NCBI GenBank assembly: GCA_051872395.1
Contig: JBJEDU010000032.1
Location: forward strand, 502-64,501
Source of the DNA: Bacilli bacterium
GTDB lineage: Bacteria; Bacillota_I; Bacilli_A; RFN20; CAG-826
DNA length: 64,000 nt
Reading direction: 5' to 3'
In this document: positions 6,030 to 63,658 of the stretch, piece by piece
How positions within the stretch are numbered: the first letter of the stretch is position 1
Layout of the letters: the number at the start of each line of letters is the position of its first letter
Position numbers and translations under genes: made by a program
The notes under the pieces: model-generated
What the model saw: the letters and a program-made list of their open reading frames with translations, nothing else
Databases searched by the model: none
What the model was told of the DNA's origin: nothing

Positions 6030-6506
6030 ATGTTTAGAGTGGGATTTGCAAAAGATATTCATCGATTAGTCAAAGGTAGACCATTAATTTTAGGTGGTGT
6101 CACTATTCCTTTTGAACTTGGTGAAGACGCTCATAGTGATGGGGATGTTGTCTATCATAGTTTAAGTGAAGCAATGCTCGGCTCTTTAGCGTTAGGGGAT
6201 TTAGGTACATTTTATCCCACTGACGATGATAAATATTTAAATATTGATTCATCGTATTTTGTTAAAGGTTGTTATAAAAAGGTTTTGGATAAAGGTTACT
6301 CCATTGTCAATATTGATATATCTATCAATTTAGAGAAGCCTAAATTAAAACCATATTTACAAAATATGAGAGAAAATATATCTTCTTTATTAGAAATCGA
6401 TATTAAAAATATTTCTATTAAAGCGATGACGAATGAAAAACTTGATTCAGTTGGAGAAAATAAAGCCGTTGAATCATATTGCTATTTGTTAATTAAAAAA
6501 AATTAA
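6030..6506 (+). CDS. ispF: 2-C-methyl-D-erythritol 2,4-cyclodiphosphate synthase
   Basis: Zn-ligand motif DIHRL plus AHSDGDV. The whole 158-aa protein aligns to IspF (GGVTIPFELG...). Confidence 0.9.
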   Translation: MFRVGFAKDIHRLVKGRPLILGGVTIPFELGEDAHSDGDVVYHSLSEAMLGSLALGDLGTFYPTDDDKYLNIDSSYFVKGCYKKVLDKGYSIVNIDISINLEKPKLKPYLQNMRENISSLLEIDIKNISIKAMTNEKLDSVGENKAVESYCYLLIKKN

Positions 6507-15850: not shown

Positions 15851-16300
15851 TTGCATATTAAATGTTATAATACATTTACTATGGCAAAGGTTGTTTTAGA
15901 ATCTAAAAATGATTGTGTCGCTTTGATGTATGGGTTAACTCAGCTTACCCCATCTGATTTATATTCTCAATGCGCTTTATCCCTTTCTAGTGAATGTATC
16001 AATATTTATAACGATAATTGTTATGATTTAACCGATGCGAATGGCAATCATGTTCATAAAATTCGTATCAGTGTTCCTCTTAGTCAACTTATCTCTATCA
16101 CTGTTACAAAATATAATAAGAATAAAAAATTTAAAGATTTAAGAAAATTATCTTTAATTGTTGATTCTCAAGAAATGTCAATTAATGTTTTTTATTACAA
16201 AAAAGACGATAAAATTGTTAACAATTTTTTAAATATGCTAAAAAAATATAAAAAAGTGAAAATCACGAATATCACTTGCAATTTACATGAGGATTATTAA
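15851..16300 (+). CDS. Hypothetical protein (149 aa)
   Basis: ORF with no recognisable motifs. It ends 3 nt before the dehydrogenase start. The first ATG may be internal (MAKVV at 15881). Confidence 0.4.
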   Translation: MHIKCYNTFTMAKVVLESKNDCVALMYGLTQLTPSDLYSQCALSLSSECINIYNDNCYDLTDANGNHVHKIRISVPLSQLISITVTKYNKNKKFKDLRKLSLIVDSQEMSINVFYYKKDDKIVNNFLNMLKKYKKVKITNITCNLHEDY

Positions 16301-16303
16301 TTG

Positions 16304-17491
16304 ATGTTTTCTATTATTGGCTTAGGCTATGTTGGAAGTGCTAATGCGACTTTTTTGGCTAAATCAAATGATGTTTATATTTACGATATCGATTCTAAAA
16401 AAGTTGATGCTTTATATTTAAAAAAACCTTTGATAAAAGACAAAGAATTATCAATTGCTTTAAAAGATAAAAATATCAAATTTATAAAAGGAGATTTCTT
16501 CACTAATATCAAAAATAGTGAATTTGTTTTGATTGCGACTTCGACAAATTTCGATGTCGAAAAAGAAAATTTAGATATTTCCTCTATTTGTGATGTTATT
16601 AGTAAAGTTAAAGATATTAATCCAGATGTTACTTTTATTATTCGTTCGACTGTTCCTATTGGAACTTGTCGATATTTAAAAGAAAAATATAAAATTAATA
16701 ATCTTATTTTCATGCCAGAATTTTTAAAAGAAGGTGAATCTTATTTAAACACTGTTCTACCTTCAAGATTAATTTTTGGTTATGATAAATCTAATGAATA
16801 TTTGACAAAAAAAGTTGATAAAATTGAAAAAATTTATACTTCATTATCTTTAGATAATAAAGTTAAAATATTTCACATGAATTATGAAGAAGCTGAATCG
16901 ACAAAATTATTTTCCAATACCTTTTTAGCGCTTCGTGTCGCTTATTTTAATGAATTGGATACATTTGCAAAAATGAATAATTTATCGAGCAAGGATATTA
17001 TCGAAGGTGTATGCGCGGATTCTCGCATTGGAAATTTTTATAATAATCCTTCCTTTGGTTATGGGGGATATTGTCTTCCAAAAGATAGTCGAGCGTTAAA
17101 ATCTTTATTTAAAAATATTCCTAATAACATTATTTCTAGTTGTATCGACGCGAATGAAACTAGAAAAGAATTTATTGCGAACGATATCTTAACAAGTGCA
17201 TTAAATATTTCTTCTAATCCAACGATTGGATTTTATTTATTAACGATGAAAAAAGATTCTGATAATTATCGGGAATCTTCCTCATTAAAATTATTAGAAT
17301 TATTGAAAAATAAAAATGTTAATTTATTAATTTATGAACCACTTATAAAAGAAGATGAATTTAACGGTATTAAAGTGATAAAAAATCTTGATGAATTTTT
17401 ATCTATATCAACGCTTGTAGTAATGAACCGTATTAATAAAAATATCAAACATTCTCATATTTATAGTCGGGACATATTTAATAAAGATTAA
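16304..17491 (+). CDS. Nucleotide-sugar dehydrogenase (UDP-glucose / UDP-ManNAc 6-dehydrogenase family)
   Basis: N-terminal Rossmann IIGLGYVGSANATFLA. Catalytic Cys motif GGYCLPKD. The listed start at 16301 is TTG and the ATG is at 16304. Confidence 0.85.
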   Translation: MFSIIGLGYVGSANATFLAKSNDVYIYDIDSKKVDALYLKKPLIKDKELSIALKDKNIKFIKGDFFTNIKNSEFVLIATSTNFDVEKENLDISSICDVISKVKDINPDVTFIIRSTVPIGTCRYLKEKYKINNLIFMPEFLKEGESYLNTVLPSRLIFGYDKSNEYLTKKVDKIEKIYTSLSLDNKVKIFHMNYEEAESTKLFSNTFLALRVAYFNELDTFAKMNNLSSKDIIEGVCADSRIGNFYNNPSFGYGGYCLPKDSRALKSLFKNIPNNIISSCIDANETRKEFIANDILTSALNISSNPTIGFYLLTMKKDSDNYRESSSLKLLELLKNKNVNLLIYEPLIKEDEFNGIKVIKNLDEFLSISTLVVMNRINKNIKHSHIYSRDIFNKD

Positions 17492-17522
17492 TATTTTTAT
17501 TAAATAATGTATAATATCAAAT

Positions 17523-18815
17523 ATGATTGAGCTTAAAAATTTAGAAATTTCCAAATCAAAAAAGAAGAATGATAAAGTTAACGTTATGTTCCCTTTAGGA
17601 ATATATTATTTAGATTCTTATAGTAAACATATTTTCTCTTTTCTTTTATTCGATAAGGAATTAGAACAAGTTAAAGGTCAATTATTAGTTGATGATGTCG
17701 ATTTATTTAGTAGCGAAGATTCTACTTTCTTTTCTTTAAAAATCAACTCTAAATTTGGTTCTTTTTATTCCTTTTTTGTAGTTGATAAAAACGACAAAGA
17801 AAATCAAAGAGCAGAGATTATTAATGCTTTTCAAGCATTGAAAGATTTGCCTCATGAAAACGAAGAACAAATCAAAGAAAAGATTTTAGCGTTATTTAAT
17901 TTATATGTTGAGAAAAACGCGAAATATATTTGTGTTGATTTTAATGAAGTAGCGAATAAAGAACATGAAAATATCATTATTGAAAACATGACTGATTTCC
18001 AAGAAAAATTAACTTTCATTTGTTTGAAAAGGAAAGTCATTATAAAAGAGGATGAAATTAAAAAAGATAATTCTTCTATTAAATCTAATGAAGAAGATGA
18101 ACTAATAGAAGAAAATTATTCAAATGAAGAGGTTAATAAAGAGAATGTTGAAACTCAAGCAAATGTCACCTCTTTAAATTTCAAAGGAATGGAAGATCAT
18201 GTTGAAATCGATAAAAAAGAAACCGCGCCTCTATTAGAATTTGATACTTTTAATATTGGATTTATTGCTGAAGAAAAGGAAAATAAACCAAGCGAAAAGA
18301 AGAAAAAGAAAAATATTACTAAACCAATAAAAAAATTCGTTGGTTTCTTCAATAGAAATGTTCTTGTTAGTGTATTAATTTCTTTTGCTTGTTTACTTAT
18401 CGTTTTGTTCTCTATGCTTTTAATCTATTCGTTTAAACATAGTAAATTGTTTGATTCTATCTTAATTTTATTAGTGACAATCATATCATTCTCTGTTTCT
18501 ACTTTCATACAAGTATCTTCTTTTGACTTTTTAAAAGGGAAACCGATTAAAATGCAAAAAGAAAAATATGTCTACACTTTAGTGCTCATTGAATTATCAA
18601 CGTTTGTCGGTATTGCTTTAGGCTATGGTATATTTGCGTTATTTTATAATTTAAATTTCTTGTTAGATAGCGAAAAATATATTGCCGTTTATTCAATTGT
18701 CGCTATCATTTTATCTATTGTTGCCTTTATTGTTCCTTTACTTGCTCCAATCGTGTTAAAGATTGCAAAAAAGGTTAAATTATTTTTTACAAGCGCAGGT
18801 ATTAAAAATAAATAG
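17523..18815 (+). CDS. Hypothetical membrane protein: roughly 270-aa acidic cytoplasmic N-domain plus four C-terminal TM helices
   Basis: ORF with a K/E-rich linker and hydrophobic segments from about residue 290 onwards. No known motifs. Confidence 0.45.
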   Translation: MIELKNLEISKSKKKNDKVNVMFPLGIYYLDSYSKHIFSFLLFDKELEQVKGQLLVDDVDLFSSEDSTFFSLKINSKFGSFYSFFVVDKNDKENQRAEIINAFQALKDLPHENEEQIKEKILALFNLYVEKNAKYICVDFNEVANKEHENIIIENMTDFQEKLTFICLKRKVIIKEDEIKKDNSSIKSNEEDELIEENYSNEEVNKENVETQANVTSLNFKGMEDHVEIDKKETAPLLEFDTFNIGFIAEEKENKPSEKKKKKNITKPIKKFVGFFNRNVLVSVLISFACLLIVLFSMLLIYSFKHSKLFDSILILLVTIISFSVSTFIQVSSFDFLKGKPIKMQKEKYVYTLVLIELSTFVGIALGYGIFALFYNLNFLLDSEKYIAVYSIVAIILSIVAFIVPLLAPIVLKIAKKVKLFFTSAGIKNK

Positions 18816-19668
18816 ATACTGCTTTATATGCATCAGTCGCTAAATCGATGAAATGCTTCGCTACTTCCTTGAAGTTGTAGCCGTGGATTTCGCCTTCTTT
18901 ATTAAAGTGTTTAAATTCCGCTAAAAAGGCCCATTGTAAGGCGATAGCGATTCTAAATAAATAGAACTTAATTTTTTTATTATCATCTAATTCATCTTGA
19001 TAATATGCTTCTAATAATTTTTCACCATCGATTAATTTATCGTTGGCAAAACACGCTATATCGTAGAGTGGATCATTTTTCATCATAAATTCAAAATCAA
19101 TTAATAAATATTGATTGTCATCTGATAAAACTATATTACTTTTTTGTAAATCGTTATGAGATAATACTTTCTCTCCGTTTTCTAATAAACTTCTTTTAGA
19201 AAAAATAAATTTTTCTAATTCTAATAATTTAGTGTCGTATTTTAAATTATTTTTTATCCCTAATTGATGATAGTCAGTAATTTGTTTAAATATATCGTAA
19301 GTAAGATTTACTCCGTCAGTGGAAACTCGATGGAGTTTTTTTAAAGATTCCGCTAAAGCGGAAATATCAATTTCTTCATCCTTTAAAAAATTTAAAGAAG
19401 TTCCTTCGATGAATTCATTAATTTTAATTCCTGTCTCAACATCAAAATATATATTTTTGCTAGTTAATCCTGCTTCATAAACTTTTCTTTGAACAAGTTT
19501 TTCATTGTCACGGTCCACTAAATCATTTGAACCTTTTCCAGGAATATAAATAATATATCTTTTATTATTTGATGAAACTAAATATGATTCATTCATCATT
19601 CCACCAAATATTCTTTTCTCTATTTTATATTCATTAAAGACTTTATTTAATATTGTAGTTTCTTTCAT
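18802..19668 (-). CDS. Choline/ethanolamine kinase–aminoglycoside phosphotransferase family kinase (LicA-like)
   Basis: Catalytic loop HNDLQKSNIVL and Mg-binding LIDFEF (the Brenner motif HxDxxxxN...D). Confidence 0.75.
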   Translation of the reverse strand: MKETTILNKVFNEYKIEKRIFGGMMNESYLVSSNNKRYIIYIPGKGSNDLVDRDNEKLVQRKVYEAGLTSKNIYFDVETGIKINEFIEGTSLNFLKDEEIDISALAESLKKLHRVSTDGVNLTYDIFKQITDYHQLGIKNNLKYDTKLLELEKFIFSKRSLLENGEKVLSHNDLQKSNIVLSDDNQYLLIDFEFMMKNDPLYDIACFANDKLIDGEKLLEAYYQDELDDNKKIKFYLFRIAIALQWAFLAEFKHFNKEGEIHGYNFKEVAKHFIDLATDAYKAVSIYF

Positions 19669-28917: not shown

Positions 28918-30906
28918 TTAAATATAGTTAAAGTTTATAAATAAATGAAATAATAGTGAAGATATGCAATATATAGAAATTATTGTTACAAAAATATTTG
29001 TTATAGTTTTATTAAATTTATTTTTCTGATTTGATAGATATTGAATTATAAACCCAACTAAAAGAGCAAAAGTAAAATATAAAATTCCTAAATATCTAAA
29101 GTCCATCGTACAAGCATATGGCATTTGAATATTAAACAAAAGAAACGAAACGATGAACGTAAATGTTGGTGCGATAGCGAATACAATATTTAAATAATTT
29201 TTATTATTAAACACTTTCTTTTTAATTATCAAAATTAAAGATGCAATTGTTAAAGAAATAAATACAAAGAATAAAATGTACCCAATAACATCTTTTTTAA
29301 ATAAGAAGACGATTGATAAATATAAAGAAACAATCAATGTAAAGACATATAGAGTATTAAATTTTTTCTCTTTTGTCATTTTAATCACTATATAAATAGT
29401 GACTAATATCAAAGATACAAAAAGTAAAGTATTCGCAACATATAAAATGACGCTAGTGTATAAGTTAGTATATGAAAATTCTCCAAAGATGGAAGATTTT
29501 AGCATTGATACATAAATATTATAGTCTTGTGGGTAAGCGGTATTTGATGCCCATAATTGCATAAATATATTGGAAAAATATTGAGAAAAAGGAAAGATAA
29601 CAAATCTTTGAAAATAATTTTTTGTTGGGTCCACTAATAAGTTGTGATTAAGATTATCCCAGACATAATTAAATGGCTGATTATAATTTAAATAATTATA
29701 AATAGGCCAATACATTCCGATAGGGAAAACGATTATCGCAAATGTTATAAATAATCCAAAAGCATATAATGTTTTTTTACTTTTAATTAATTTGATAAAT
29801 ATATAGACAAATTCAAAGAAAATAGGAATAGCGATCATCGCTCCACTAACTTTTGAAGCCATGCCTAACCCAATTGAAAACGCTAATAAAATTATTGTTT
29901 TAAAGTTTTGTTTATAGAAAAATTTTATAGCAAGATAAACTGAAGCGTGAATAAAAAACCATAGAAGTGGATCGTTATTACTCATTGCGCTCACTCTAAT
30001 TAAAAATGGTGAACAAACAAATAATAATAAAGAAATAGAAATGGCTTTTTCACTCTTTAGAAATAAGCGTAGTGTTTTATAAGTAAAATATAATTCTAAT
30101 ATTGATAAAGTCGTCGTTAAAATTCTTATTGATTCATATAAAACAAATGTATCTTTTGTGTTTAAAACAAAAGACATAAAATGCATAAAATAAGCATACG
30201 TATAATGAGCAAATTTAGGATGATAAAATTGATAAGAAGCTTTTAATGATGGTAGTTGATTAGCGTCTAAAAGTAAATCAGGAATCTTGTTGTAATAATA
30301 GATGTGCATCGTTATAGAATAATGTCCGTTGTAGTTTAAACTCCACACATCGTATTGTCGGGTAAAAATGTTATCGGTAATATTCATATAAAATAAACGA
30401 ATTATTATACCGATAAAGGCAATTAAGATAATTGTTCTTTTAAATGATAATTTCTTTTTGAAATGTAAATAAAATAAAGCAAATAAAATTAAAGAAATCA
30501 AAATGAAAGAAGTAATAAAAACATCTAAGTGATTGATGCTATTAACAAAATTTCTTCCAGCTGTTTGAAGCGCTTGTTTATCGGCTTTTAGTATATTAGG
30601 CTGATATAGATTTAAATTGAGGCTTCCTTTAGTTAAAGAAAATATTGCATAACTAATAAATGTTAAAATGAAGACTAAAATAAAAGCATATAAAAACGAT
30701 AATTTACTTCGATATAATCGTAAAATTATATTTTTTAAATTCGTTAATGCATCATCTTTAGTTTCTTTAAAATATTGTATTGGATGCGTTGACAATTTTA
30801 AAAAAGAATACGTAACTTTTCTTTTTGCTAACAATGAATAGATAATTAAAACAAAAAACAATAATAAAAAAGATATAGCGATTATGAAAGGAATATTATT
30901 TATCAT
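28918..30906 (-). CDS. Polytopic GT-C superfamily glycosyltransferase (ArnT / PMT_2-like, polyprenyl-phosphate-sugar dependent)
   Basis: 662 aa with about 14 predicted TM helices and short loops. The arrangement is typical of the ArnT / protein-O-mannosyltransferase-like family. It overlaps the upstream oxidoreductase gene by 11 nt. Confidence 0.6.
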
Positions 30907-32446
30907 CTTTTTTACTCTCGTGATATTCTTTTTCTGTATTTACTTTCCAGATGATAGATTTATCTAAATTATTTTTAATACAATTGACCGCTTCAATACT
31001 GGTCAATATTGAATGATCCATATTATTATAACGATGTTGTCCGTTTCTACCTATACAATATAGGTTAGAAATTTTATTGAGTTTTTCTTTTAAAACTTCA
31101 ATTTCATTATATGTATCAAAATATCCAGGATATGCTTTTTTAATTCTTAATACACAGCTATCTTTAACATCATCTTTACTTTTAATAAATTTAATTTTTA
31201 AAAGTTCATCGATCGCTGAAGAGATGAAATCATCATCATTTGAGTTCCACATTTCATCATTTTCATTTACAAAATATTCTAATCCAATCCAAATGGAATT
31301 TTGATAATCTTGAACCATGTATGGAGACCAGTTATTAAATATTTGAATTCTTCCAAGTTTGACTTCCTCTTCTTGTACATAAATCCAAGTATCAGGAATG
31401 ATATTATTAACTGTCTTAATTTTTGTTTTATTAGTAACTGCTAAAGAGTCAAGCAATAATCCAACAGTCATAAAATCTCGATATGATAATCCAGTAGCGA
31501 TGCGATATTCTTCTTTTCCTAAATCTTTTTCACCGATGGAAATCGCTAAATCTTTTAAACTCATCGATGAAAAATAATAATCGCCAACATATTCTTGATT
31601 GTCCTTTGTGATGACTTTTTTTATTTCATCATTTTCCAAAATAACTTTATTAATTTCTTGATTAAAATGAATCTCTCCTCCTAATTCAACAATTTTTTCT
31701 GCCATTAATTCATATAATTGACCTGGTCCTTTTTTCGGATAATAAAATTGTTCAATTAAAGAAGTTTCAACTTTTTTATTCCCTTTTTTAAATGGTTTAG
31801 TTATCGCATTAGTAATGGTTTTTAATAAAGAAAGACCTTTGACTCTTTGCGCTCCCCAACCTGCATCAATTTCTTTTGGGCTTCTTCCCCATACTTTTTC
31901 TGTATATTTTTCAAAAAACATTTGATAAAGTGGTTTACCAAAACGATTAATATAGAAATTTTCTAAATTAGTTTCTTTTCTTTTGTGGATGAGACTACCG
32001 ACGTAGCCAAATCCTGCTTTCATGGTTCTTTTAAAACCCATATTTTTAAAAGTTTCAAATTTCAAAGAAATAGGATAAGAGAAAAATTTATGAAGGTATA
32101 AAATTCTCGATACTCTATTTCTTATGAGCATGACATCATCATCTTTTTCAGGATCTTTTCCATTATTGGAAAGTGGAATATCCCTATTAAGTTCGATATC
32201 ATCTTTACTTTTTTGTGATTGAAGAGGCATTATTTCAAGCCATAAATTCATGACTTCTTCATTTTTAGTAAAAAAGCGATGACCACCAATATCCATTCGA
32301 TTGCCATGATGGTTATAGGTTTTACTAATTCCACCTATCTCATTACTGGCTTCTAAAACGATTGGTTTAATATCTGTAGTTTTTAATAATTGGTACGCTG
32401 CACTTAATCCAGCAGGACCTGCTCCGATAATAATGGCTCTTTTCAT
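30896..32446 (-). CDS. FAD/NAD(P)-binding Rossmann-fold oxidoreductase (UDP-galactopyranose-mutase / amine-oxidase-like superfamily), 516 aa
   Basis: N-terminal dinucleotide-binding motif [15 protein letters not shown]...[14 protein letters not shown] followed by GGHRFF. Confidence 0.7.
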
Positions 32447-32451
32447 TAAAT

Positions 32452-32958
32452 TTAATCCTTATATAAAATATATTTTCTTGTAAAATAGTTCCAAATTAGA
32501 CCAACGATAGTTTTTAAACAAAAACATATGAAATAGGTCCAAAATGTTATGTCAGTAAAAAATGAAAAATTAAATATATCAGTCAAACTTGATTTTGATA
32601 TATCAATATTAAAGCATTTTAAAACAATGACTTGACTTAAAGACATTGTCAGTACTGATAAAACTAAGCCAATAAAAGAAAAAACAACGAATAGCACAAT
32701 AAATTTTGCACTTTTTTTCTCTTTTTTGACCTCACCTTTTTTAAATACATAATAGGTCGATAAAATGTAATTTAAAATGACACCACCAATAAAACCAACA
32801 GCGGTCGATAAGATAATTGCTACTATATCGTTGATATTTGTGGTAAAAACTAAAACAAGTTTACAAAGTAAAAAATCAACTAGAGCACATAGAACCCCAG
32901 TTAATATAAATCTCACTAATTGTTTTAAAGAAGAATTATCCTTTGCATTTAAAGACAT
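32452..32958 (-). CDS. GtrA-family membrane protein (polyprenyl-phosphate-sugar flippase-like)
   Basis: 168 aa with 4 TM helices. The N-terminus [18 protein letters not shown] is typical GtrA. It lies 5 nt upstream of the oxidoreductase. Confidence 0.75.
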
Positions 32959-46170: not shown

Positions 46171-47232
46171 TTATTTTTGATAGTAACTTAAGAATTTTTC
46201 TAATAAAGGTTTGTGATAAACGTTAGCTTTTTCTTTGTCCCAACTGTATCTTGTTCTATCGGAATTGAATATTAAATCATCTTCACTAACTTCAATTCCT
46301 TCAATTATCTTTGTCCCATTAAAATTATTCAAATATTCTAAATCTTCTAATCTTTCTGAAGTGAAGAAGGAACGAGAAATATAATAATTACCTTGTTCAT
46401 TTACGCTAACTGCGTCATTTAAATAAGTCAAAGCACTTTTTAAATTTCCGTTTTCATATCTTTGGAAAGTCGGAACGTATCCAGTAGCGTAACCAAACAC
46501 GCTATCGCCTTCAGTGCTTAATTTATAATCATTTTTAAATTTTGTGTAATTTTCATTTGAAGAATTTTTGATACCATCTTCAAGTAAAATTCCTTCAATT
46601 TCGCAATCAAATAAATATAATTGTTCATCATTTAAATTATCTTCATAATATGGAATGACAACATTTGGCATAGCGAATTGACAATCAGGGCAGCTCGCCC
46701 ACACATAACAAACAGTAAAATTATCATTGGCTATTTTTTCATCGAGTTGTTCTTGATTAATATATATTAATTTTGGTTCAAAAATTACTTCCTTCAGCGT
46801 CTTTTCTAATTGAATTGTGCTTTTGAATAAAGGATCAATATTTTTTGTAACATATTGCCATTCTTTTTTTAGTTTCCCTTTTTCGAATAATGCGAGAGTA
46901 GGGCGGTCGGAATAATAAGTTAATCCATATCGATTGGTTTCACTATCTAAAAGTTCATAATTTATTTTGTAAATAATTGTTGAATTTTGTTTTACATAAT
47001 CATCGATAACACCGCTGAACTGTGTCCAACATCCGCAGGTAGAATTTTCACCTGGATAAATAGCTAACACAAAACTTTGTTCATCGATTATTTTTATTTT
47101 TAAATCATCATAAGTAATTTTAGTCGCGCTTGTGTCAAAATCAGAACCAAACGTAATCAAGGTTTTATTATCTTTAGTACACGCTGATAAAATCATTAGT
47201 GATGGTAGTAAACATAGTATAGTTTTTTTCAT
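46171..47232 (-). CDS. Lipoprotein with a thioredoxin-like CxxC motif (putative extracytoplasmic thiol-disulfide oxidoreductase)
   Basis: Lipobox MILSAC at the N-terminus. WASCPDCQF resembles a CxxC active site, and a second TCGCW cysteine pair is present. Its stop abuts the ldh stop (convergent). Confidence 0.55.
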   Translation of the reverse strand: MKKTILCLLPSLMILSACTKDNKTLITFGSDFDTSATKITYDDLKIKIIDEQSFVLAIYPGENSTCGCWTQFSGVIDDYVKQNSTIIYKINYELLDSETNRYGLTYYSDRPTLALFEKGKLKKEWQYVTKNIDPLFKSTIQLEKTLKEVIFEPKLIYINQEQLDEKIANDNFTVCYVWASCPDCQFAMPNVVIPYYEDNLNDEQLYLFDCEIEGILLEDGIKNSSNENYTKFKNDYKLSTEGDSVFGYATGYVPTFQRYENGNLKSALTYLNDAVSVNEQGNYYISRSFFTSERLEDLEYLNNFNGTKIIEGIEVSEDDLIFNSDRTRYSWDKEKANVYHKPLLEKFLSYYQK

Positions 47233-49084: not shown

Positions 49085-49904
49085 TGTGGAAAAAAAGAAT
49101 AAAAGACCACATTTGCTCTCTTTCAAAAGAAAGTATTTATGTATTCCTTATTCTTTATTTTTAATTTTATTTATCATCGTTCCAGTTATCATTATTGTTT
49201 GTTATGCTTTCACTGATAATAACGGAATGTTTACATTTGATGCTTTCGTTGATTTTTTCACTTCTTGGTCAAAAATTAATTGTTTGATTGTATCAGTGTT
49301 TATTGCGTTACAAACCACAATTATTTGTTTATTGATTGGTTATCCTCTTTCATATTTTTTGGCTAATCGAAAAATTAACAAAAATGTTGTTTTGTACACT
49401 TTATTTATCGCTCCAATGTGGATTAATTTCGTCTTGAGAACTGGGGCAACCAGAGATTTATTAAGCTGGTTAAATATCAATGGTGGTAATTATCCATATC
49501 TCGCTACATTGATTGGTATGACTTATAACTATTTGCCATTTGTTATTTTGCCACTTTATACAACAATGTTAAAACTTGATAAGAGTCAAATTGAAGCCGC
49601 CAGTGATTTAGGCGCTACACCTTTCCAAGTTTTTTATAAAACAATTATTCCTCAATCATTTCCGGGTATCGTTTCTGCTTGCTTGATGACATTTATGCCA
49701 ACGATGTCAAGTTATGTTATTTCTGATACTTTAAGTGAAGGAAAAATTACTTTATTTGGTAATTATATTTACTTAGATTTCACTAATAACGCTTGGAATG
49801 ATGGTAGTTTTTTAGCGTTGATTATGCTCGTTATTATCGGCATTTCAATGCTTCTTACTAAAAACGTCTCTAAAGAAGACGCTAGAGGAGGTGGATTATG
49901 GTAA
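49071..49904 (+). CDS. potB: Spermidine/putrescine ABC permease
   Basis: A 6-TM BPD-transporter permease with the EAA loop IEAASDLGATPFQVF. Overlaps potA by 14 nt. Confidence 0.85.
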   Translation: MKSSSVEKKNKRPHLLSFKRKYLCIPYSLFLILFIIVPVIIIVCYAFTDNNGMFTFDAFVDFFTSWSKINCLIVSVFIALQTTIICLLIGYPLSYFLANRKINKNVVLYTLFIAPMWINFVLRTGATRDLLSWLNINGGNYPYLATLIGMTYNYLPFVILPLYTTMLKLDKSQIEAASDLGATPFQVFYKTIIPQSFPGIVSACLMTFMPTMSSYVISDTLSEGKITLFGNYIYLDFTNNAWNDGSFLALIMLVIIGISMLLTKNVSKEDARGGGLW

Positions 49905-52555
49905 AGAAAATTTTAGGGCAAACCTATATTTGGATCATTTTACTTTTAATGTATCTTCCTATTTTAGTTTTAATTGCTTTTTCATTTACTGAAGCAACAA
50001 ATGTCGGTGAATGGACTGGATTTACTTTTAATCTTTATACTCGTTTATTTCAAAGTAAAGAGATTATGACAGCGCTTGGAAACACTTTGATTATCGCTTT
50101 ATTAAGTGCGATAATTTCTGTTTTATTAGGTACTTCTGGTGCTATCGGAGCTTTCTATAGCAAAAAACATACAAAAAACACTATTGATACTGTTACTCAA
50201 ATTCCTGTTGTTAACGCTGAAATTGTTATGGCTTTATCTTTAACTGTTATGTTCGTTTTCTTAGGAAGCGTAGTTTTTAAACAAAATTTATTTGGATTTT
50301 GGACTCTTTTAATCGGTCATGTTGTTTTATCGGTTCCTTTCGTTTATATTTCCGTGAAACCAAAATTACAACAAATGGATCCAAGTTTATATGAAGCAGC
50401 AATTGATTTAGGTGCTACTCCACATAAAGCACTTTGGAAAGTCATTATTCCAGAAATTATTCCAGGAATTGTTTCGGGATTTTTACTTGCTATTACATTA
50501 TCTCTCGATGATTTTATTATTACCGCATTCACTCGTGGTAGTGGTCTATTAAATGGTGAAGGAACGATTGAAACGCTTTCAACTTTAGTTCAAGCCAAAA
50601 TTAAAAAAGGACCTATTCCTCCAGAAATGAGAGCGTTAACTACTTTCATCTTTTTAGCGGTTTTAATTGTTGTTATTGTTATTTCCATTAGAAAATATCA
50701 ACAAGAAAAGAAATTGCACGATCCAAAAAATAAAGAAAAAGTTAAAAAAGTTAAATATTTTGGTATTTTCTTATTTTTAGGTGCTTGCTGTTTAACTTCT
50801 TGTTCACCAACGAATTCTTCTTCCTCTCAAACTTTGAGATTATTAAACTGGGAAGATTATATTTATGAACAAGATATTTCTAACGGATATGAAAAAGAAG
50901 ATTTAATCGATCAATTTGTTTCATATGTAAAAGAAAATTATCCTCAATATCAAAATGTTAAAGTCATTTATGATACCACTGATACAAACGAAACAATGTT
51001 CAATGAATTACAAACAGGTAAATCAAAATATGATTTAATTTGTCCAAGTGATTACATGATTCAAAAATTAGTTTCTAATAAAATGTTAGAAAAATTAGAT
51101 AGAAACTTAATTCCTAATTATGAGCAATATGCTTCTAGTCAATTAAAAACAACTCTCGATCAAATATCCGCTCCAATTCTTGATAAAGACGGAAATAAGA
51201 CCGGAGAATATGAACTATTAGAAGATTACGCTGTCGGTTATATGTGGGGAACTTTAGGTTTATTATTTAACCCATCATTTTCCAAATTAAAAGTAGAAGA
51301 AGAACAAATGTTTGAAGATGTGCGTTCTTGGTCTATTTTATGGGATTCAACATATAAAGGTATGATGTCAATTAAAGATAGTATGAGAGATACTTATGCC
51401 GCAGCACTTATGTATACTTATGATGATGAATTGACTGAATTACGTAATCGTTATTTAAATAACGAAATCACAAGTACTGAATATAACGCTAGTCTTTCTA
51501 CAATATTCAATCGTTGTGAAGACGAAAATATTAAAGAAGTAAATGAATCACTAAATGAACTCAAAAAGAATATTTTCGGAATGGAAGTCGATTCAGGAAA
51601 AGAAGACATTGTTACTCGAAAAATTGGTATTAATTTAGCGTGGAGTGGCGATGCTGTTTATTCTATCGCCCAAGCTCATGATGATACCTTAGTTAGTGAG
51701 ACATTCGATTTATATTATTCATTACCAGAAAATGGTGGAAACATCTGGTTTGATGGTTGGGTCATGCCAAAATTAGGTGAAGGAGAAAGAAGTCAAGAAC
51801 AATACGAATTAGCGCATATTTTCTTAGATTTTATTTCCAATCCTGAAAACGCTAGCCAAAACATGGATTACATTGGTTATACTCCATTTATTGCTGGTGA
51901 TTCCATTATAGATCTCGTTAGAGATTGGTATGATTATCGTTGCGATGTCATCTATTTACGAGATGAAGAAGAGGAAGAATATTACGAAGATGTTGTCTAT
52001 ATCGACCCTGTCAGCGGAGATGAATTGAGTGTCGATTATAACGATGTTCATTTCATTGAAGATAGTGATCCTCTTTATGATGACGTTGAATTAATTGGTA
52101 TTTACCTCGATGAAAATGAAGAGGAAGTCCGTGAGACTCTCGATGAAACTTTCAATGAAAGACTCATATTACCTGATGATATTGAAGAAGTTGATTTATC
52201 ATATTTCTTCAATGGAACATTAGATGAATATGAAGATGGTGTCGATACAATTTTCTATTCTGATTGTTATCATTCAATTTTCAATGAAGATGGAACAAGA
52301 AATATTTGTGTCGGTCAAGAATTTTTCACTCAATATCCTGACGAAGAATGCATCATTAGATGTGCAGTTATGGAAGATTATGGAAAACAAAATGGTGCAA
52401 TTTTAAAAATGTGGGAGAATTTCAAAAGCGACCCATTACCAGTTTGGGCAATCATTTTATTCTCATCTGAAATCGTCATTTTATTCGGTGGTGTGTTATA
52501 TTTTTACATCAGAAAGAGAGTGAAAGTAAACTTGAGAACAAATAGAAAGAATTGA
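49898..52555 (+). CDS. potCD: Fusion of a PotC permease to a PotD polyamine-binding domain (885 aa)
   Basis: The N-terminal roughly 280 aa is a 6-TM permease with the EAA loop YEAAIDLGATPHKALW. An internal lipobox-like LGACCLTSC follows, then PotD-like motifs (LRLLNWEDY, YDLICPSDYM, VGYMWGTLGLLFNP, IWFDGWVMPK). There is an acidic insert and a C-terminal TM helix. Confidence 0.8.
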   Translation: MVKKILGQTYIWIILLLMYLPILVLIAFSFTEATNVGEWTGFTFNLYTRLFQSKEIMTALGNTLIIALLSAIISVLLGTSGAIGAFYSKKHTKNTIDTVTQIPVVNAEIVMALSLTVMFVFLGSVVFKQNLFGFWTLLIGHVVLSVPFVYISVKPKLQQMDPSLYEAAIDLGATPHKALWKVIIPEIIPGIVSGFLLAITLSLDDFIITAFTRGSGLLNGEGTIETLSTLVQAKIKKGPIPPEMRALTTFIFLAVLIVVIVISIRKYQQEKKLHDPKNKEKVKKVKYFGIFLFLGACCLTSCSPTNSSSSQTLRLLNWEDYIYEQDISNGYEKEDLIDQFVSYVKENYPQYQNVKVIYDTTDTNETMFNELQTGKSKYDLICPSDYMIQKLVSNKMLEKLDRNLIPNYEQYASSQLKTTLDQISAPILDKDGNKTGEYELLEDYAVGYMWGTLGLLFNPSFSKLKVEEEQMFEDVRSWSILWDSTYKGMMSIKDSMRDTYAAALMYTYDDELTELRNRYLNNEITSTEYNASLSTIFNRCEDENIKEVNESLNELKKNIFGMEVDSGKEDIVTRKIGINLAWSGDAVYSIAQAHDDTLVSETFDLYYSLPENGGNIWFDGWVMPKLGEGERSQEQYELAHIFLDFISNPENASQNMDYIGYTPFIAGDSIIDLVRDWYDYRCDVIYLRDEEEEEYYEDVVYIDPVSGDELSVDYNDVHFIEDSDPLYDDVELIGIYLDENEEEVRETLDETFNERLILPDDIEEVDLSYFFNGTLDEYEDGVDTIFYSDCYHSIFNEDGTRNICVGQEFFTQYPDEECIIRCAVMEDYGKQNGAILKMWENFKSDPLPVWAIILFSSEIVILFGGVLYFYIRKRVKVNLRTNRKN

Positions 52556-52623: not shown

Positions 52624-52727
52624 ACAAACGCTATGCATGGTTCCTTAGCCAAGTTGGTAAGGCAGTTGACTGCAACTCAACGAGCATCGGTTCGAATCCG
52701 GTAGGAACCTCCAAACATAGCGTTTGT
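52624..52727. repeat. Perfect 12-bp inverted repeat bracketing tRNA-Cys
   Basis: ACAAACGCTATG (52624–52635) and CATAGCGTTTGT (52716–52727) can form a long-range stem enclosing the tRNA. Confidence 0.7.
52639..52713 (+). tRNA. tRNA-Cys (anticodon GCA)
   Basis: Anticodon loop CUGCAAC, U73 discriminator, encoded CCA. Confidence 0.85.
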
Positions 52728-52734
52728 GATTATT

Positions 52735-52811
52735 GCGCCTTTAGCTCAACTGGATAGAGTGTCAGACTACGAATCTGGAGGTTGCGAGTTCGATTCTTGC
52801 AAGGCGCGCCA
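52735..52811 (+). tRNA. tRNA-Arg (anticodon ACG)
   Basis: Anticodon loop CUACGAA, encoded CCA. Confidence 0.9.
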
Positions 52812-52821
52812 ATTAATTTAT

Positions 52822-52899
52822 CGGGATGTAGCGTAGCTTGGTTATCGCGTCTGCTTTGGGAGCAGGAGGTCGTGAGTTCGAATCTCACCATCCCGACCA
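52822..52899 (+). tRNA. tRNA-Pro (anticodon TGG)
   Basis: CGGGAUG acceptor, anticodon loop UUUGGGA, encoded CCA. Confidence 0.85.
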
Positions 52900-52909
52900 T
52901 TATTTATTT

Positions 52910-52985
52910 GGGGCTATAGCTCAGTTGGAAGAGCGTCTGATTTGCATTCAGAAGGTCGAGAGTTCGAATCTCTTTAGCTCCACCA
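52910..52985 (+). tRNA. tRNA-Ala (anticodon TGC)
   Basis: GGGGCUA acceptor with the G3:U70 identity pair, anticodon loop UUUGCAU, encoded CCA. Confidence 0.9.
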
Positions 52986-52996
52986 AAAATGTATAT

Positions 52997-53073
52997 GGCT
53001 GCGTAGCTCAGTTGGCTAGAGCGTTCGGTTCATACCCGATAGGTCGAGAGTTCAAGTCTCCCCGCAGCTACCA
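52997..53073 (+). tRNA. tRNA-Met elongator (anticodon CAT)
   Basis: Anticodon arm UCGGUUCAUACCCGA and overall architecture match Firmicute elongator tRNA-Met. Encoded CCA. Confidence 0.75.
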
Positions 53074-53081
53074 TTTATTTT

Positions 53082-53158
53082 GGACCACTAGCTCAATTGG
53101 TCAGAGCATCTGGCTCATAACCGGCTGGTTTCGGGTTCAAGTCCTGAGTGGTCCACCA
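53082..53158 (+). tRNA. tRNA with CAT anticodon, probably tRNA-Ile2 (lysidine-modified)
   Basis: The GGACC...GGUCCACCA acceptor and CUCAUAA loop resemble Bacillus tRNA-Ile(CAU). It is not initiator-like: there is no C1xA72 mismatch and a U:G pair sits in the anticodon stem. Confidence 0.6.
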
Positions 53159-53161
53159 ATC

Positions 53162-53251
53162 GGAGGTGTACCCAAGTGGTTGAAGGGGTTGGTCTTGAAA
53201 ACCAATAGGGGCGAGTAACCCGCTAGAGTTCGAATCTCTATACCTCCGCCA
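53162..53251 (+). tRNA. tRNA-Ser (anticodon TGA)
   Basis: Long variable arm, anticodon loop CUUGAAA, G73, encoded CCA. Confidence 0.85.
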
Positions 53252-53358
53252 TATTAAATGAAATGTCCCCCATTTTTTTCCTAAATAAGGTAAGAAATGG
53301 TGGATTTTTTATTTTCCATAACAATTTTATATATAAATATAGTAAAATTATCTTAATT

Positions 53359-54207
53359 ATGAACGACTTACAAAAATGCCAATTAAATATTTTAAAACAA
53401 TTTATTAGAGTGTGTGATAAATACAATCTTCGTTATTTTTTAGTGGGTGGTTCTTGTTTAGGCGCGATACGACATCAAGGTTTTATTCCTTGGGATGATG
53501 ATATTGATGTTGGAATGCCAAGAGAAGATTTTGAAAAATATATTACTTTGCAAAAAGAATATGAAGGGACAAATTTCTTCATTCAAACATATAAATCAGA
53601 TCCTTGTTATATTTATAATTACGCTAAATTGCGTGATAGTGGAACGACATACATTGAAAATATTTACAAATATCATCGAATTAATCATGGTGTATGGATT
53701 GATATTTTTCCAATTGATGCTTTCGTAAATAAAATTATGCCGAGAGAAAAATATGCAAAAAGTGTGAAATTTGTGTGGTGGAATGTCTATTTGTCTTATT
53801 TACCGGCTTTACGAAGAAAAGTTCATAAACGAACATTTTTTAAAGATATTGGTTTGAATATTATTGCAGGTTTATCTTATATTTTTGATATCAATCATTT
53901 TAGAAACAAAAGAATTGATAAATATACTCAAAAATATAATAATTCTGATTCAAAAATGTATGGTAATCACTTCGGTTTTAACGTTAAAAAAGAAGCGATG
54001 GATAAACAAATATTCTTTGAGTATATCAAAGTGAAATTTGAGGATATTGAAGCAAATGTTCCAAAACAATATGATACATATTTAACTAATCTTTATGGAG
54101 ATTATATGAAATTTCCTCCAATAGAAAAACAAGTTGGACATCATTTGAATAAAGGATTTTCTTTGTCTATTGGATATGAGCAATATATTAAAGAACACAA
54201 AATCTAA
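53359..54207 (+). CDS. LicD-family phosphotransferase (phosphocholine / ribitol-phosphate transferase type)
   Basis: LicD motif YFLVGGSCLGAIRHQGFIPWDDDIDVGMPRED. ATG 53359 is the probable start, because the listed upstream start at 53263 overlaps the tRNA-Ser flank. Confidence 0.8.
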   Translation: MNDLQKCQLNILKQFIRVCDKYNLRYFLVGGSCLGAIRHQGFIPWDDDIDVGMPREDFEKYITLQKEYEGTNFFIQTYKSDPCYIYNYAKLRDSGTTYIENIYKYHRINHGVWIDIFPIDAFVNKIMPREKYAKSVKFVWWNVYLSYLPALRRKVHKRTFFKDIGLNIIAGLSYIFDINHFRNKRIDKYTQKYNNSDSKMYGNHFGFNVKKEAMDKQIFFEYIKVKFEDIEANVPKQYDTYLTNLYGDYMKFPPIEKQVGHHLNKGFSLSIGYEQYIKEHKI

Positions 54208-54225
54208 ACAGGAGTTATTTTTATT

Positions 54226-54936
54226 ATGAATTATGCGTTGATTTTAGCCGCAGGAACTGGCTCAAGAATGGGAAATACTGATAAACCAAAACAGTTTCTT
54301 CCAATTTATGGAAAACCTTTGGTGGTTCATACTGTTGAAGCTTTTGAAATGCATGAAGAAATCGAAGGAATTGTCATCGCGACCAATGAAGCGTATGTTG
54401 ACCAAGTAAAAGTTTGGTGTAAACAATATGATTTAAGCAAAGTTAAAGCAGTAGTGGCAGGTAGTGATTCTCGTCAAAAGAGTGTTTTTAATGGATTAAT
54501 GGCTTTAAAGAAATTTGTTAATGATGATGATATCCTTTTAATTCATGACGCTGCTAGACCACTGATTTCATCAAAAATAATTTCTGATAATATCAAAGAA
54601 TGTCAAATTTCTGATGCTGTCGATACAGTTATTAAAGCATCAGATACCATCATTTGTAGTAAAGATGATAAAACAATCGATAATATTCCAAATAGAAGCG
54701 AATTATATCAAGGTCAAACTCCTCAAACATTTAAATTTTCATTAATTATAAAAGCTCATGAGATGGCAATGAATAATGTTGTTAATAATGTTACTGATGA
54801 CGCAAAATTAGTTTTATCTCTTGGTTATAAAGTTTCTCTTGTTGAAGGAAGTAAACAAAATTTTAAAGTGACAACTTTCGATGATTTAATGATGCTAAAA
54901 GCGCTTTTGAAAATCGGAAAAACTGAGGTTTTATAA
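54226..54936 (+). CDS. tarI: Ribitol-5-phosphate cytidylyltransferase (TarI / IspD family)
   Basis: Motif ILAAGTGSRMGNTDKPKQFLPIYGKPLV. RBS AGGAG is upstream. It is followed directly by a TarJ-like reductase. Confidence 0.8.
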   Translation: MNYALILAAGTGSRMGNTDKPKQFLPIYGKPLVVHTVEAFEMHEEIEGIVIATNEAYVDQVKVWCKQYDLSKVKAVVAGSDSRQKSVFNGLMALKKFVNDDDILLIHDAARPLISSKIISDNIKECQISDAVDTVIKASDTIICSKDDKTIDNIPNRSELYQGQTPQTFKFSLIIKAHEMAMNNVVNNVTDDAKLVLSLGYKVSLVEGSKQNFKVTTFDDLMMLKALLKIGKTEVL

Positions 54937-55976
54937 TGTTTACAAATATATATAAAGTAACTTCTCCAGGTGTCATAGAAGAATTTGTTGATACAGTCGA
55001 TATTGAAAATAAAGTTGTCGTTAAGATTGATACGATGGCTATTTGCAAAGCTGATATCAGATATTATAAAGGCGATAGAGATCCTTTTGTCTTAGAACAT
55101 AAATACCCTTTAGCTCCTATTCATGAGGCTGTTGGTGTAGTTATTAAAGACCCAACAAATACCTTTAAAAGTGGTGATAAAGTAATTCTTGTGCCTAATT
55201 CAATAGAATTCGATGAAGAAATTAAAAAAGAAAAAAATCGAAGAATGTTAAGAAAAGATTTGGGTGAAAATTACTGTCAAAACGCTATATTTAGAAGCTC
55301 TAACGCTGATGGATTTTTAAGACAATACTATTCTTGTGAGCCTTCTCAACTTGTTAAATATGATGATTCTGTCGAATCAAAATATGCGGTATTTTCTGAA
55401 CTTTTATCCGTTTCGAATGCAGCGATTAGAAGGATAGATTTTTCTTCTGTCAATAAATTGGCAATATTTGGTGATGGAATAATGGGATATATGACATATG
55501 TCATGATTATTTCTTCCCATCCTGAAGTTGATTTAACTGTCTTTGGCACTAATAAAGATAAATTAGCGTTATTTAAAAAGGCTAAAACATTTTTAACAAA
55601 CGAATTTAATGGTGAACAATTCGATACACTTATCGAATGTGTCGGTGGAGCGTTTCAAGAAAATGTTATTGACTCAATGATTTCTTTTTCAATTGTTGGC
55701 GCGGATTTGATTCTTATGGGTGTCAGCGAAAATAAAGTTAAAATTAATACGAGAAAAATATTAGAAAAAGGACTTTCACTTAAAGGAGTAACTAGAAGTT
55801 CAAAAGAAGATTTTGTTCTCGTTAGCGAATTTTTGAATAAAAGCGAATTTGTTGATTTATTGAAACCTTTAGTTATTTCTATTAATCAAATCAATAATTT
55901 AAACGATATTTATAATTGTTTTACCAAAGAAATTGATAATAAAACAGTTGTTGGTAAAAATTTATTAATTTGGTAA
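54936..55976 (+). CDS. tarJ: Zinc-type alcohol dehydrogenase (TarJ-like ribulose-5-phosphate reductase)
   Basis: MDR-family ADH fold (ICKADIRYYKGDR, GHEAVG-like PIHEAVGVV, GxGxxG-like FGDGIMG). Its start overlaps the tarI stop (ATAATG). Confidence 0.7.
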   Translation: MFTNIYKVTSPGVIEEFVDTVDIENKVVVKIDTMAICKADIRYYKGDRDPFVLEHKYPLAPIHEAVGVVIKDPTNTFKSGDKVILVPNSIEFDEEIKKEKNRRMLRKDLGENYCQNAIFRSSNADGFLRQYYSCEPSQLVKYDDSVESKYAVFSELLSVSNAAIRRIDFSSVNKLAIFGDGIMGYMTYVMIISSHPEVDLTVFGTNKDKLALFKKAKTFLTNEFNGEQFDTLIECVGGAFQENVIDSMISFSIVGADLILMGVSENKVKINTRKILEKGLSLKGVTRSSKEDFVLVSEFLNKSEFVDLLKPLVISINQINNLNDIYNCFTKEIDNKTVVGKNLLIW

Positions 55977-62299: not shown

Positions 62300-62482
62300 T
62301 TAAATCACCTCCTCATTTTCAAAACAATATGATTATATCTATATATTAGAGACAATTCAAGTTTAAATTTAAATTAGACTAATCAATGATAATTCATTGA
62401 TGGGGATATTGTTCACTCCTCTTTTAGGTATTGAAATCAAATGACTTTTTCGATAGCATATTTAAAGGCGGATTTTATTATG

Positions 62483-63658
62483 AATATTACAGTTGTTTGT
62501 GATGTATTAGGTGAGGCCAATAACGGTACTACTCTCGCTGCATTAAATTTGATTAATTCTTTAAAACAAAAAGGTCATAAAGTAAATGTTATTTGTCCCG
62601 ATCCTCTTAGAAGTGGTGAAGAGGGATTCTTTATTATGCCTTTATGTTCTTTTGGTATATTAAATAGTTATGTTAAGCATAATGGCGTTTCAATTGCTAA
62701 AAGTGATGTCAGCATCATCGATAAAGCGTGTAAAGACGCTGATATAGTGCATAGTATGCTTCCATTTTCAGTAGGAAGAGCAGCAGTTAAATATTGTATC
62801 GAACATAAAATACCAATTACATCAGGATTTCACGCGCAAGCGGAAAATTTAACTTCACATGTTTTTTCAATGAATATTAAATTGATTAATCGTTGTGTTT
62901 ATAACAATTTATGGAATCATTACTATAAATATGTTGACGCTATTCACTTCCCAACAAGATTTATTTGTGAAGTAGCAACAAAATTTGGTATGAAAGGTCC
63001 AAAGCCTTACATAATTTCTAATGGCGTTCAAACTAATTTATTCAATACTAATGTTAAGGTTGAACGACCAAAATATTTGGATGGTTCCTTTGTTATTGTA
63101 ATGAGTGGAAGATTATCAAAAGAAAAAAATCAAAAAATATTAATTGATGCGATAAGTAAATCAAAATATAAAAATATTATTCAGCTCATTTTAGCGGGCG
63201 ATGGTCCAAGAAAACATGCTCTATTTAAATACGGAATGAAAAAGTTAAAAAATCAACCGATTATCAGAGCATTTAAGCACGAAGAATTAAATACTGTTTT
63301 ACGATACGCTGATTTATATGTTCATACTTCAATTATAGAAATTGAAGCCATCAGTTGTTTAGAAGCTTTAGCGTGTGGTTTAGTCCCAGTTATCGCTAAT
63401 TCACCTCGCAGTGCTACAAGTAAATTTTCCTTACGACCAGAATCAAGCTTTAATTATCGCTCTGCAAAAGATTTGGCTAAAAAGATTGACTGGTGGATTG
63501 AACATCCAGAGATAAAAAAAGAAGCATCGATAGAATATTCGGAATATGCTAAAGAATTTGACTTCAATAAATGTATGGATAGAATGGAACAAATGCTTAT
63601 TGAAGTAAAAGAAAACTATAATCCTGAAAGACCATGGCTAAAAAAGAAAAGAAAATAA
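62483..63658 (+). CDS. GT4-family glycosyltransferase (candidate diacylglycerol / glycolipid glycosyltransferase)
   Basis: C-terminal Glycos_transf_1 signature (MSGRLSKEKNQ...EIEAISCLEALACGLVPVIAN, the EX7E motif). ATG 62483 (MNITVVCD) is the probable start. Confidence 0.8.
   Translation, partial: NITVVCDVLGEANNGTTLAALNLINSLKQKGHKVNVICPDPLRSGEEGFFIMPLCSFGILNSYVKHNGVSIAKSDVSIIDKACKDADIVHSMLPFSVGRAAVKYCIEHKIPITSGFHAQAENLTSHVFSMNIKLINRCVYNNLWNHYYKYVDAIHFPTRFICEVATKFGMKGPKPYIISNGVQTNLFNTNVKVERPKYLDGSFVIVMSGRLSKEKNQKILIDAISKSKYKNIIQLILAGDGPRKHALFKYGMKKLKNQPIIRAFKHEELNTVLRYADLYVHTSIIEIEAISCLEALACGLVPVIANSPRSATSKFSLRPESSFNYRSAKDLAKKIDWWIEHPEIKKEASIEYSEYAKEFDFNKCMDRMEQMLIEVKENYNPERPWLKKKRK

Follow-up and report, generated by a model that had tools for sequence, protein, structure and literature searches.

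Which compound would be transferred, and onto what, by a LicD-family enzyme whose gene is followed by those of two putative enzymes of cytidine diphosphate ribitol (CDP-ribitol) synthesis? This question is raised by three adjacent genes, licD, tarI and tarJ, in a stretch of 64,000 nucleotides (nt) from a Bacilli bacterium (contig JBJEDU010000032.1), which is hereafter named the window. We propose that licD-tarI-tarJ is probably a self-contained three-gene operon of native base composition, whose products would make CDP-ribitol and use it to decorate a surface sugar. Positions of the features discussed are collected in Table 1.

The product of the second gene is a cytidylyltransferase of the TarI type. 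It matched the Pfam family IspD (E 3.2e-53), scored 235 bits with the NCBIfam model for D-ribitol-5-phosphate cytidylyltransferase (NF001183, cut-off 166), and 186 bits with NF001186, below the cut-off of that model. Its top four matches in the PDB were all TarI-type enzymes, with E-values from 1.5e-49 to 5e-43: Staphylococcus aureus 6xhp (1.5e-49), Bacillus subtilis 4jis, the Listeria paralogue 3f1c, and Streptococcus pneumoniae 2vsh (5e-43). The best IspD, B. subtilis 5ddt, came at 3.8e-34. The protein is 40% identical to S. aureus TarI over its full length, and its motifs YQGQTPQTF and DTII align with TarI sequences, not with B. subtilis IspD.

The third gene encodes a protein with the Pfam domain ADH_N over cut-off and ADH_zinc_N under cut-off. 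It matched S. aureus TarJ (PDB 6xh9) with an E-value of 9.3e-53 and 182.8 bits, over residues 1-346, whereas the next medium-chain dehydrogenase/reductase (MDR) in the PDB, a sorbitol dehydrogenase, reached only 33 bits (E 3.5e-7), and other MDRs did no better. In full-length alignment with S. aureus TarJ (35% identity, E 1e-63), Cys37, His63-Glu64 and the segment GDGIMGY (179-185) are identical residues. From general knowledge of MDRs, we take the first three to be catalytic-zinc ligand positions, and GDGIMGY to be the glycine motif that binds the dinucleotide. No TarJ-specific NCBIfam model was matched. Relative to S. aureus TarJ, residues ~91-109 (55206-55262, segment EFDEEIKKEKNRRMLRKDL) contain a Lys/Glu-rich insertion of ~12 residues. 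A scan of metagenomes with TarJ returned 3 loci, and the exact TarJ sequence was otherwise found on short Logan contigs only, which belong to the same species.

Enzymes of the TarJ family convert ribulose-5-phosphate and NADPH to ribitol-5-phosphate, and those of the TarI family convert cytidine triphosphate (CTP) and ribitol-5-phosphate to CDP-ribitol and pyrophosphate. Judging from these characterised homologues, the two proteins of the window would very likely yield CDP-ribitol. A preliminary description of this DNA had named the genes a TarI-type cytidylyltransferase and a TarJ-like zinc alcohol dehydrogenase (ADH), and had attributed CDP-ribitol synthesis to them; both names stand, and the synthesis follows from the two identifications. 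It had also proposed to look at whether the two proteins would group with bona fide IspD and with unrelated ADHs. Once this was done, they grouped with TarI and TarJ instead.

The possibility that the cytidylyltransferase is really, or additionally, the IspD of the methylerythritol phosphate (MEP) pathway, and the dehydrogenase an unrelated ADH, has some points in its favour. With 203.6 bits (cut-off 181.3), the cytidylyltransferase satisfies the ispD model TIGR00453 as well, but this is 31 bits under its NF001183 score, and in the PDB ranking TarI enzymes lead IspD by 9-15 orders of magnitude in E-value. IspF, an enzyme of the MEP pathway, is encoded in the window, by a gene that stands alone between ychF and argS and lacks a neighbouring ispD. 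The same synteny is found in two relatives (L099, 9466-9960, and L100, 9507-9998), and relatives carry DXS. In the closest species-representative genome among the matches listed (L006, 10001-11558), a licD whose product is 59% identical is followed after 2 nt by a cytidylyltransferase gene, without tarJ, and the product of the latter scores as IspD type (TIGR00453 186 bits; NF001183 165.8 bits, just under cut-off). In the window, however, the motifs side with TarI, and the gene which follows and overlaps tarI is an unambiguous tarJ. We therefore regard this alternative as very improbable; that the protein is an IspD and nothing else is effectively ruled out. In the sequence available, the window and the relatives' loci, there was no sign of a second IspD-family gene, and no bona fide ispD-ispF pair was present among the fetched loci to serve as comparator. 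It is speculative that TarI also supplies the missing IspD step of the MEP pathway.

LicD was, as the preliminary description had claimed, found to be a LicD-family phosphotransferase: PF04991 was matched from the first to the last position of its profile (1-227 of 227) with an E-value of 4.7e-51 and 174.5 bits (cut-off 22.6). The motif FIPWDDDIDVGMPRED, quoted in that description, is present at residues 42-57. Within it, the acidic motif WDDDID (residues 45-50) aligns with WDYDVD of FKRP, and is invariant in 26 LicD homologues. Hydrophobic segments were not predicted in LicD, which is accordingly a soluble protein by prediction. An AlphaFold2 model (pLDDT 88.4) gave 13 fold matches in the PDB at E <= 0.001, all of them FKRP chains (best E 4.8e-7, prob 1.0), with TM-scores of 0.42-0.46 when normalised to the query, and ~14% identity over the alignment. 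A sequence search also matched FKRP, in the DxD region (E 7.9e-7). Because FKRP is the sole LicD-family structure that surfaced in sequence or fold searches, this match says little on the donor used by LicD. From its family, LicD is predicted to take an alcohol-phosphate from a CDP-alcohol and attach it to a hydroxyl of a sugar.

We then asked of gene neighbourhoods what the donor might be, by surveying the genomic surroundings of LicD homologues 59-71% identical to the window LicD. The trio is kept in at least seven further loci of relatives, with LicDs 61-71% identical. It lies between genes for ACPS and an MFS_2 transporter in L086, between ACPS and a DUF1294 protein in L093-95, and between Peptidase_C39 and YbeY/Cdd/Era/RecO in L087/88 and L089; it is also present, in the same order, on the short contigs L090 and L092. 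In L098 the order is tarI-tarJ-licD, so that linkage of the trio survives rearrangement. The genes flanking the relatives' trios are ordinary housekeeping genes, which differ from each other and from those of the window, where tRNA genes are found on one side and a gene for a TM2-domain protein on the other. Such conservation in differing housekeeping surroundings is the signature of a vertically inherited unit, whose three members are mutually needed. A second transferase co-conserved with the trio, and hence a possible user of CDP-ribitol, was found in none of the relatives' loci. From this conserved neighbourhood, CDP-ribitol is on balance the likely donor of LicD.

A wider sample was obtained by scanning a genome collection with the LicD alignment, the back-translated motif of which, GFIPWDDD, is generic to the family. 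Among the matches listed, 80 distant LicD loci (L006-L085) span Clostridia, Veillonella, Treponema and a Methanomassiliicoccaceae archaeon; L006 was the one close relative among them. A TarI/IspD-like neighbour was present in 19 of these 80 loci, and a LicC-like neighbour in 11, so that in this set LicD often adjoins the type of enzyme that would make its donor. An MDR-type TarJ was found in the flanks of 2 of the 80 loci, versus the 19 with a TarI/IspD-like gene.

Several observations weigh against CDP-ribitol as the donor. First, a LicD of the same clade (loci L096/L097), 64% identical to that of the window, has no tarIJ within 10 kb. Its gene is convergent to LicC/LicA-like genes (L096 10001-13513, L097 3186-6698), which code for a 282-aa (amino acid) NTP-transferase and a 590-aa fusion of NTP-transferase and choline kinase. 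In a neighbour-joining tree, this LicD nests among the TarIJ-linked ones, and for this reason LicD phylogeny was rejected as a readout of the donor. This arrangement suggests donor switching or promiscuity inside one LicD clade, and LicD sequence does not reveal the donor. Second, the exact protein is present in NCBI (MGM9874157.1) under the name 'phosphorylcholine transferase LicD', and its sole NCBIfam match is a choline-phosphotransferase, Mf1 (NF045866, Mf1 GGPL cholinephosphotransferase), though far under cut-off (88.4 bits versus 225). Third, pneumococcal tarIJ lies in the lic region, near the phosphocholine-transferring licD1 and licD2, while LicD3 is encoded elsewhere (PMC5448163, PMC4649388); adjacency is therefore no proof of the donor. 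Finally, genes that would build an acceptor (initiating transferase, flippase, polymerase, LCP ligase) were not found linked to the trio in any of the loci seen. The assignment of the donor, which we still hold to be likely, rests on gene neighbourhood.

Several of these points would also fit a LicD that transfers phosphocholine (or another CDP-amino-alcohol derivative) and shares its operon with tarIJ by way of the same surface polymer, CDP-ribitol being used by a transferase encoded elsewhere. The LicC-like and LicC/LicA-fusion-like genes next to the same-clade LicD, the sub-threshold match to Mf1, the name given by NCBI and the pneumococcal precedent all go in this direction. So does a choline-kinase-family gene of the window, which is syntenic in L100. 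The preliminary description had pointed to it as a LicA-like kinase, and the gene is indeed there and belongs to the choline-kinase family; its best NCBIfam matches are unrelated small-molecule kinases, far under their cut-offs. However, this kinase lies 34 kb from licD, on the opposite strand, and is 24% identical to the kinase domain of the L096 fusion. The window has no LicC-type cytidylyltransferase, as tblastn with the LicC-like proteins of L096 matched the kinase domain only, and an EamA/DMT-type (LicB-like) permease had no match among the window ORFs (open reading frames) scanned, which were those of at least 100 aa. Moreover, the trio stays together in the relatives' loci, including the rearranged one, with no co-conserved second transferase that would take CDP-ribitol. 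Transfer of phosphocholine by this LicD is for these reasons unlikely, and transfer of ribitol-phosphate remains our preferred reading.

Is the trio an independent unit? Its three ORFs, as first described, were all found on the forward strand and at unchanged positions. The overlap that had been noted between the tarI stop codon and the tarJ start codon is seen as TAATG (54934-54938), which suggests translational coupling of the two genes, and AGGAG is present upstream of the tarI start codon. The start of licD is the ATG at 53359: lengths of 282-283 aa are found for the NCBI entry of the same sequence and for more than 100 clusters of homologues. A longer licD ORF, starting at 53263, was rejected, since it would cross the hairpin described below and exceed the length of the homologues.

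The trio had been presented as lying directly downstream of a seven-tRNA operon. Its position is correct, and Rfam gave seven tRNA matches of 56-72 bits in the cluster, but a strong terminator hairpin separates the two. This hairpin folds with -22 kcal/mol (z-score -5.2), and none of 200 shuffles folded equally well. It was seen by direct folding; a simple terminator scan called no terminator and missed it. Its probable role is intrinsic termination of tRNA-cluster transcription. Because this stable hairpin and its U-rich tract stand between the tRNA-Ser gene and licD, licD-tarI-tarJ is probably a transcription unit of its own, apart from the tRNA operon, and the tRNA cluster is an upstream neighbour only, outside the functional module. 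In a consensus promoter scan, promoter-like sites were no commoner than in shuffles.

Base composition of the trio, both overall GC content and GC at third codon positions, is that of housekeeping genes. Horizontal acquisition was considered and rejected, given this composition and the lack of mobile-element genes at its flanks. The TM2-domain gene 3' of the trio was also rejected as a member of the module, since the downstream gene varies among relatives (MFS_2, YbeY, DUF1294).

Table 1. Positions in the window of the trio, its upstream neighbours and the other genes discussed.
Feature	Position	Strand	Basis
licD, 282 aa	53359-54207	+	PF04991
tarI, D-ribitol-5-phosphate cytidylyltransferase	54226-54936	+	NF001183
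tarJ, ribulose-5-phosphate reductase	54936-55976	+	PDB 6xh9 match
tRNA cluster, 7 genes (Cys-GCA, Arg-ACG, Pro-TGG, Ala-TGC, Met-CAT, Met-CAT, Ser-TGA)	52639-53251	+	ARAGORN
Hairpin then U-rich tract	53256-53314	+	RNA folding
IspF	6030-6506	+	PF02542, E 2.4e-54
UDP-glucose-6-dehydrogenase-like gene (ugd)	16301-17491		TIGR03026, 269.8 bits
Choline-kinase-family gene	18802-19668	-	PF01633, 67.9 bits (cut-off 29)

In the mechanism that we propose, TarJ would reduce the pentose-phosphate intermediate ribulose-5-phosphate to ribitol-5-phosphate, using NADPH, and TarI would join the latter to CTP to form CDP-ribitol. LicD, soluble and cytoplasmic, would next move ribitol-5-phosphate from CDP-ribitol to a hydroxyl of a sugar acceptor, with release of cytidine monophosphate and formation of a phosphodiester. 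The acceptor itself would be supplied by genes located elsewhere. There is about an even chance that it is the repeat unit, linked to polyprenyl phosphate, of a capsular or teichoic-acid-like polymer. Less likely is a glycolipid or lipoglycan of the membrane, and what probability remains is shared by a protein glycan and a further ribitol-phosphate residue, in which case LicD would oligomerise.

The preliminary description had reported no classical Tar polymerases or linkage genes in the window, and no Glyphos_transf, MraY/TagO-type or LCP protein was found among the scanned ORFs. Nor did the 20-kb contexts of the relatives contain any TagF-family protein (PF04464, TarB/F/K/L), TagO-type protein or LCP ligase. 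The fact that the trio stands without polymer-assembly genes at all loci seen would suit a LicD acting like Mf1, on a glycolipid of the glucosyl-diacylglycerol type in a wall-deficient cell, with a glycolipid or lipoglycan bearing ribitol-phosphate as its product. It is towards this scheme that the preliminary description had leaned. Of the NCBIfam models, that of Mf1 matches LicD best, and nearly its full length is aligned. A GT4 glycosyltransferase gene at 62441-63658 (+) has alpha-monoglucosyldiacylglycerol synthase as its best NCBIfam match, a weak similarity over the full length (71.9 bits versus a cut-off of 400), by which its product is a candidate membrane-glycolipid synthase. Both matches are nonetheless far under their cut-offs, and conserved linkage of the trio with this GT4 gene was not seen in relatives. 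Besides, IspF and the GtrA/GT-C operon described below point to polyprenol-linked glycan pathways.

The related uncultured orders RF39, RFN20 and ML615J-28 are predicted to comprise a mix of walled and peptidoglycan-deficient species, some families being without peptidoglycan, and all to be without the standard routes to wall teichoic acid (WTA) and lipoteichoic acid (LTA) (Field et al., PMC10868615). Such missing routes are compatible with a non-classical ribitol-phosphate glycoconjugate, and add to what can be said for the Mf1-like scheme, which taken together we judge to be improbable. Less probable still is its stronger form: were the lineage without standard teichoic acids and thin-walled or peptidoglycan-deficient, the trio might attach ribitol-phosphate straight to a glycolipid or lipoglycan of the membrane, and TarI might in addition do the work of IspD. 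If this were true, the trio would be the bacterial parallel of ISPD/FKTN/FKRP with a lipid anchor as its target, and would stand in for teichoic acid in a minimal form that needs no polymerase. The genetic code of the window is standard, with TGA used as stop in 4 of 59 genes. For ArgS of the window, the closest homologue from a named source, a 'Coprobacillus sp.' metagenome-assembled genome, is 64% identical.

Other genes of the window concern glycans or the envelope. The GtrA/GT-C operon is an apparent operon on the reverse strand (28918-32958), made of a GtrA-family gene (32452-32958), a gene for an FAD oxidoreductase of 516 aa (30896-32446) and a GT-C/PMT_2 glycosyltransferase gene (28918-30906) whose 662-aa product has 14 transmembrane segments. 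The oxidoreductase belongs to the uncharacterised family PRK07208 (748 bits), and its N-terminus is UDP-galactopyranose-mutase-like. Together, these genes suggest glycosylation outside the cytoplasm, with a polyprenyl-phosphate sugar as the source, and IspF indicates a MEP pathway, hence a supply of polyprenol. A UDP-sugar dehydrogenase, mentioned in the preliminary description, is present as the ugd-like gene. It belongs to a segment (15851-19668) containing in order a gene for a 149-aa unknown protein, the ugd-like gene, a gene for a 430-aa unknown protein, and then the convergent choline-kinase-family gene. The product of 430 aa is charged in its N-terminal half, bears four C-terminal transmembrane segments and matched no family. 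In L099, the ugd gene is syntenic together with a gene for a 387-aa unknown protein, and in L100 the kinase gene alone is syntenic. Neither ispF, the GtrA/GT-C operon, the ugd-like gene nor the GT4 gene is co-conserved with the trio.

Some membrane-associated genes can be added. At 25-4840 (+), two consecutive genes encode proteins of 682 and 924 aa, each an ABC ATPase fused to an FtsX-type permease; this pair is conserved 5' of ychF-ispF-argS in L098, L099 and L100. A potA/potB-like operon starts at 47546, and its last gene (49898-52555, +) encodes a protein of 885 aa in which an ABC permease (BPD_transp_1) is fused to an extracellular solute-binding domain (SBP_bac_8). At 46171-47232 (-), a 353-aa protein with no family match has a lipoprotein-type signal peptide (MKKTILCLLPSLMILSAC).

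If the trio does what we propose, ribitol-phosphate would be a component of the cell envelope that is conserved and passed on vertically in a large, uncultured group of low-GC gut-type Bacilli. LicD sequences with at least 60% identity make up more than 100 clusters, and all loci sampled sit among housekeeping genes. In other Gram-positives, host lectins, antibodies and phages bind ribitol-phosphate epitopes, and the presence of such epitopes here would inform how the host perceives these uncultivated organisms. LicD-type transfer of ribitol-phosphate is also the reaction defective in human dystroglycanopathies, and the compact cassette would serve as a convenient bacterial model of it.

How does the trio compare with known systems? 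The same three families, with the same proposed chemistry, are found in S. pneumoniae and S. oralis as TarI-TarJ and LicD3 (Spr_1225). There, CDP-ribitol comes from TarJ and TarI, and a sugar of the precursor then receives phosphate-bridged ribitol through a LicD-family enzyme (PMC4649388, PMC5448163). Transfer of ribitol-phosphate in the teichoic acids of pneumococcus and S. oralis has been assigned to LicD3 (PMC4649388), which is an assignment and not a biochemical demonstration. In pneumococcus, tarIJ is found with licABC, and licD3 in a separate locus with glycosyltransferase genes and tarP/tarQ, whereas in the window the three genes form a single compact operon, near which there is no gene for a glycosyltransferase, flippase or polymerase; LicD3 is likened to the window LicD by description.

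The mammalian ISPD-FKTN-FKRP pathway has the same logic as the window, an IspD-family CDP-ribitol synthase feeding transferases with a LicD domain. To our knowledge, mammals have no TarJ-type reductase. Unlike the window LicD, FKRP and FKTN are type II membrane proteins of the Golgi, with extra domains and a protein O-mannosyl glycan as acceptor. It has been demonstrated that FKTN and FKRP put ribitol-5-phosphate on the glycan, with CDP-ribitol from ISPD, and discovery of this pathway was prompted by bacterial ISPD-LicD fusions (PMC4873967).

The closest characterised homologues of TarI and TarJ are those of S. aureus and B. subtilis W23, where their genes are likewise next to each other. In those species, the users of CDP-ribitol are the TagF-family polymerases TarK/TarL (PF04464) and not a LicD, whereas the window is devoid of PF04464 proteins. 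Mf1 of Mycoplasma fermentans is, like the window LicD, a soluble LicD-family enzyme of similar size from a reduced-genome relative within the Bacilli, and it acts directly on a glucosyl-diacylglycerol glycolipid (PMC11982090). It differs by its CDP-choline donor and by having no TarIJ partner, and the window LicD scores well under the equivalog cut-off of its model. Cps7C of Actinobacillus pleuropneumoniae has a LicD-family NTase domain, a CDP-polyol donor and a polyol-phosphate acceptor (PMC11666461). It is likened to the window LicD by description, and differs from it in its N-terminal TPR domain and its use of CDP-glycerol, the window LicD being a single domain of 282 aa. Since Cps7C shows that LicD enzymes can polymerise, synthesis of oligo-ribitol-phosphate by the window LicD is conceivable.

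By sequence-level comparison, the window module groups with LicD, TarI and TarJ on every count. It does not have the make-up of a classical WTA locus in the window, nor that of a lic phosphocholine pathway, as LicC is not encoded in the window, nor does LicD qualify as an Mf1 equivalog. It is a known type of module with a sound annotation, and involves no new mechanism. What distinguishes it from the textbook cases is its form: with no polymer-assembly genes beside it, it is a minimal three-gene cassette set in housekeeping DNA and conserved across an uncultured lineage.

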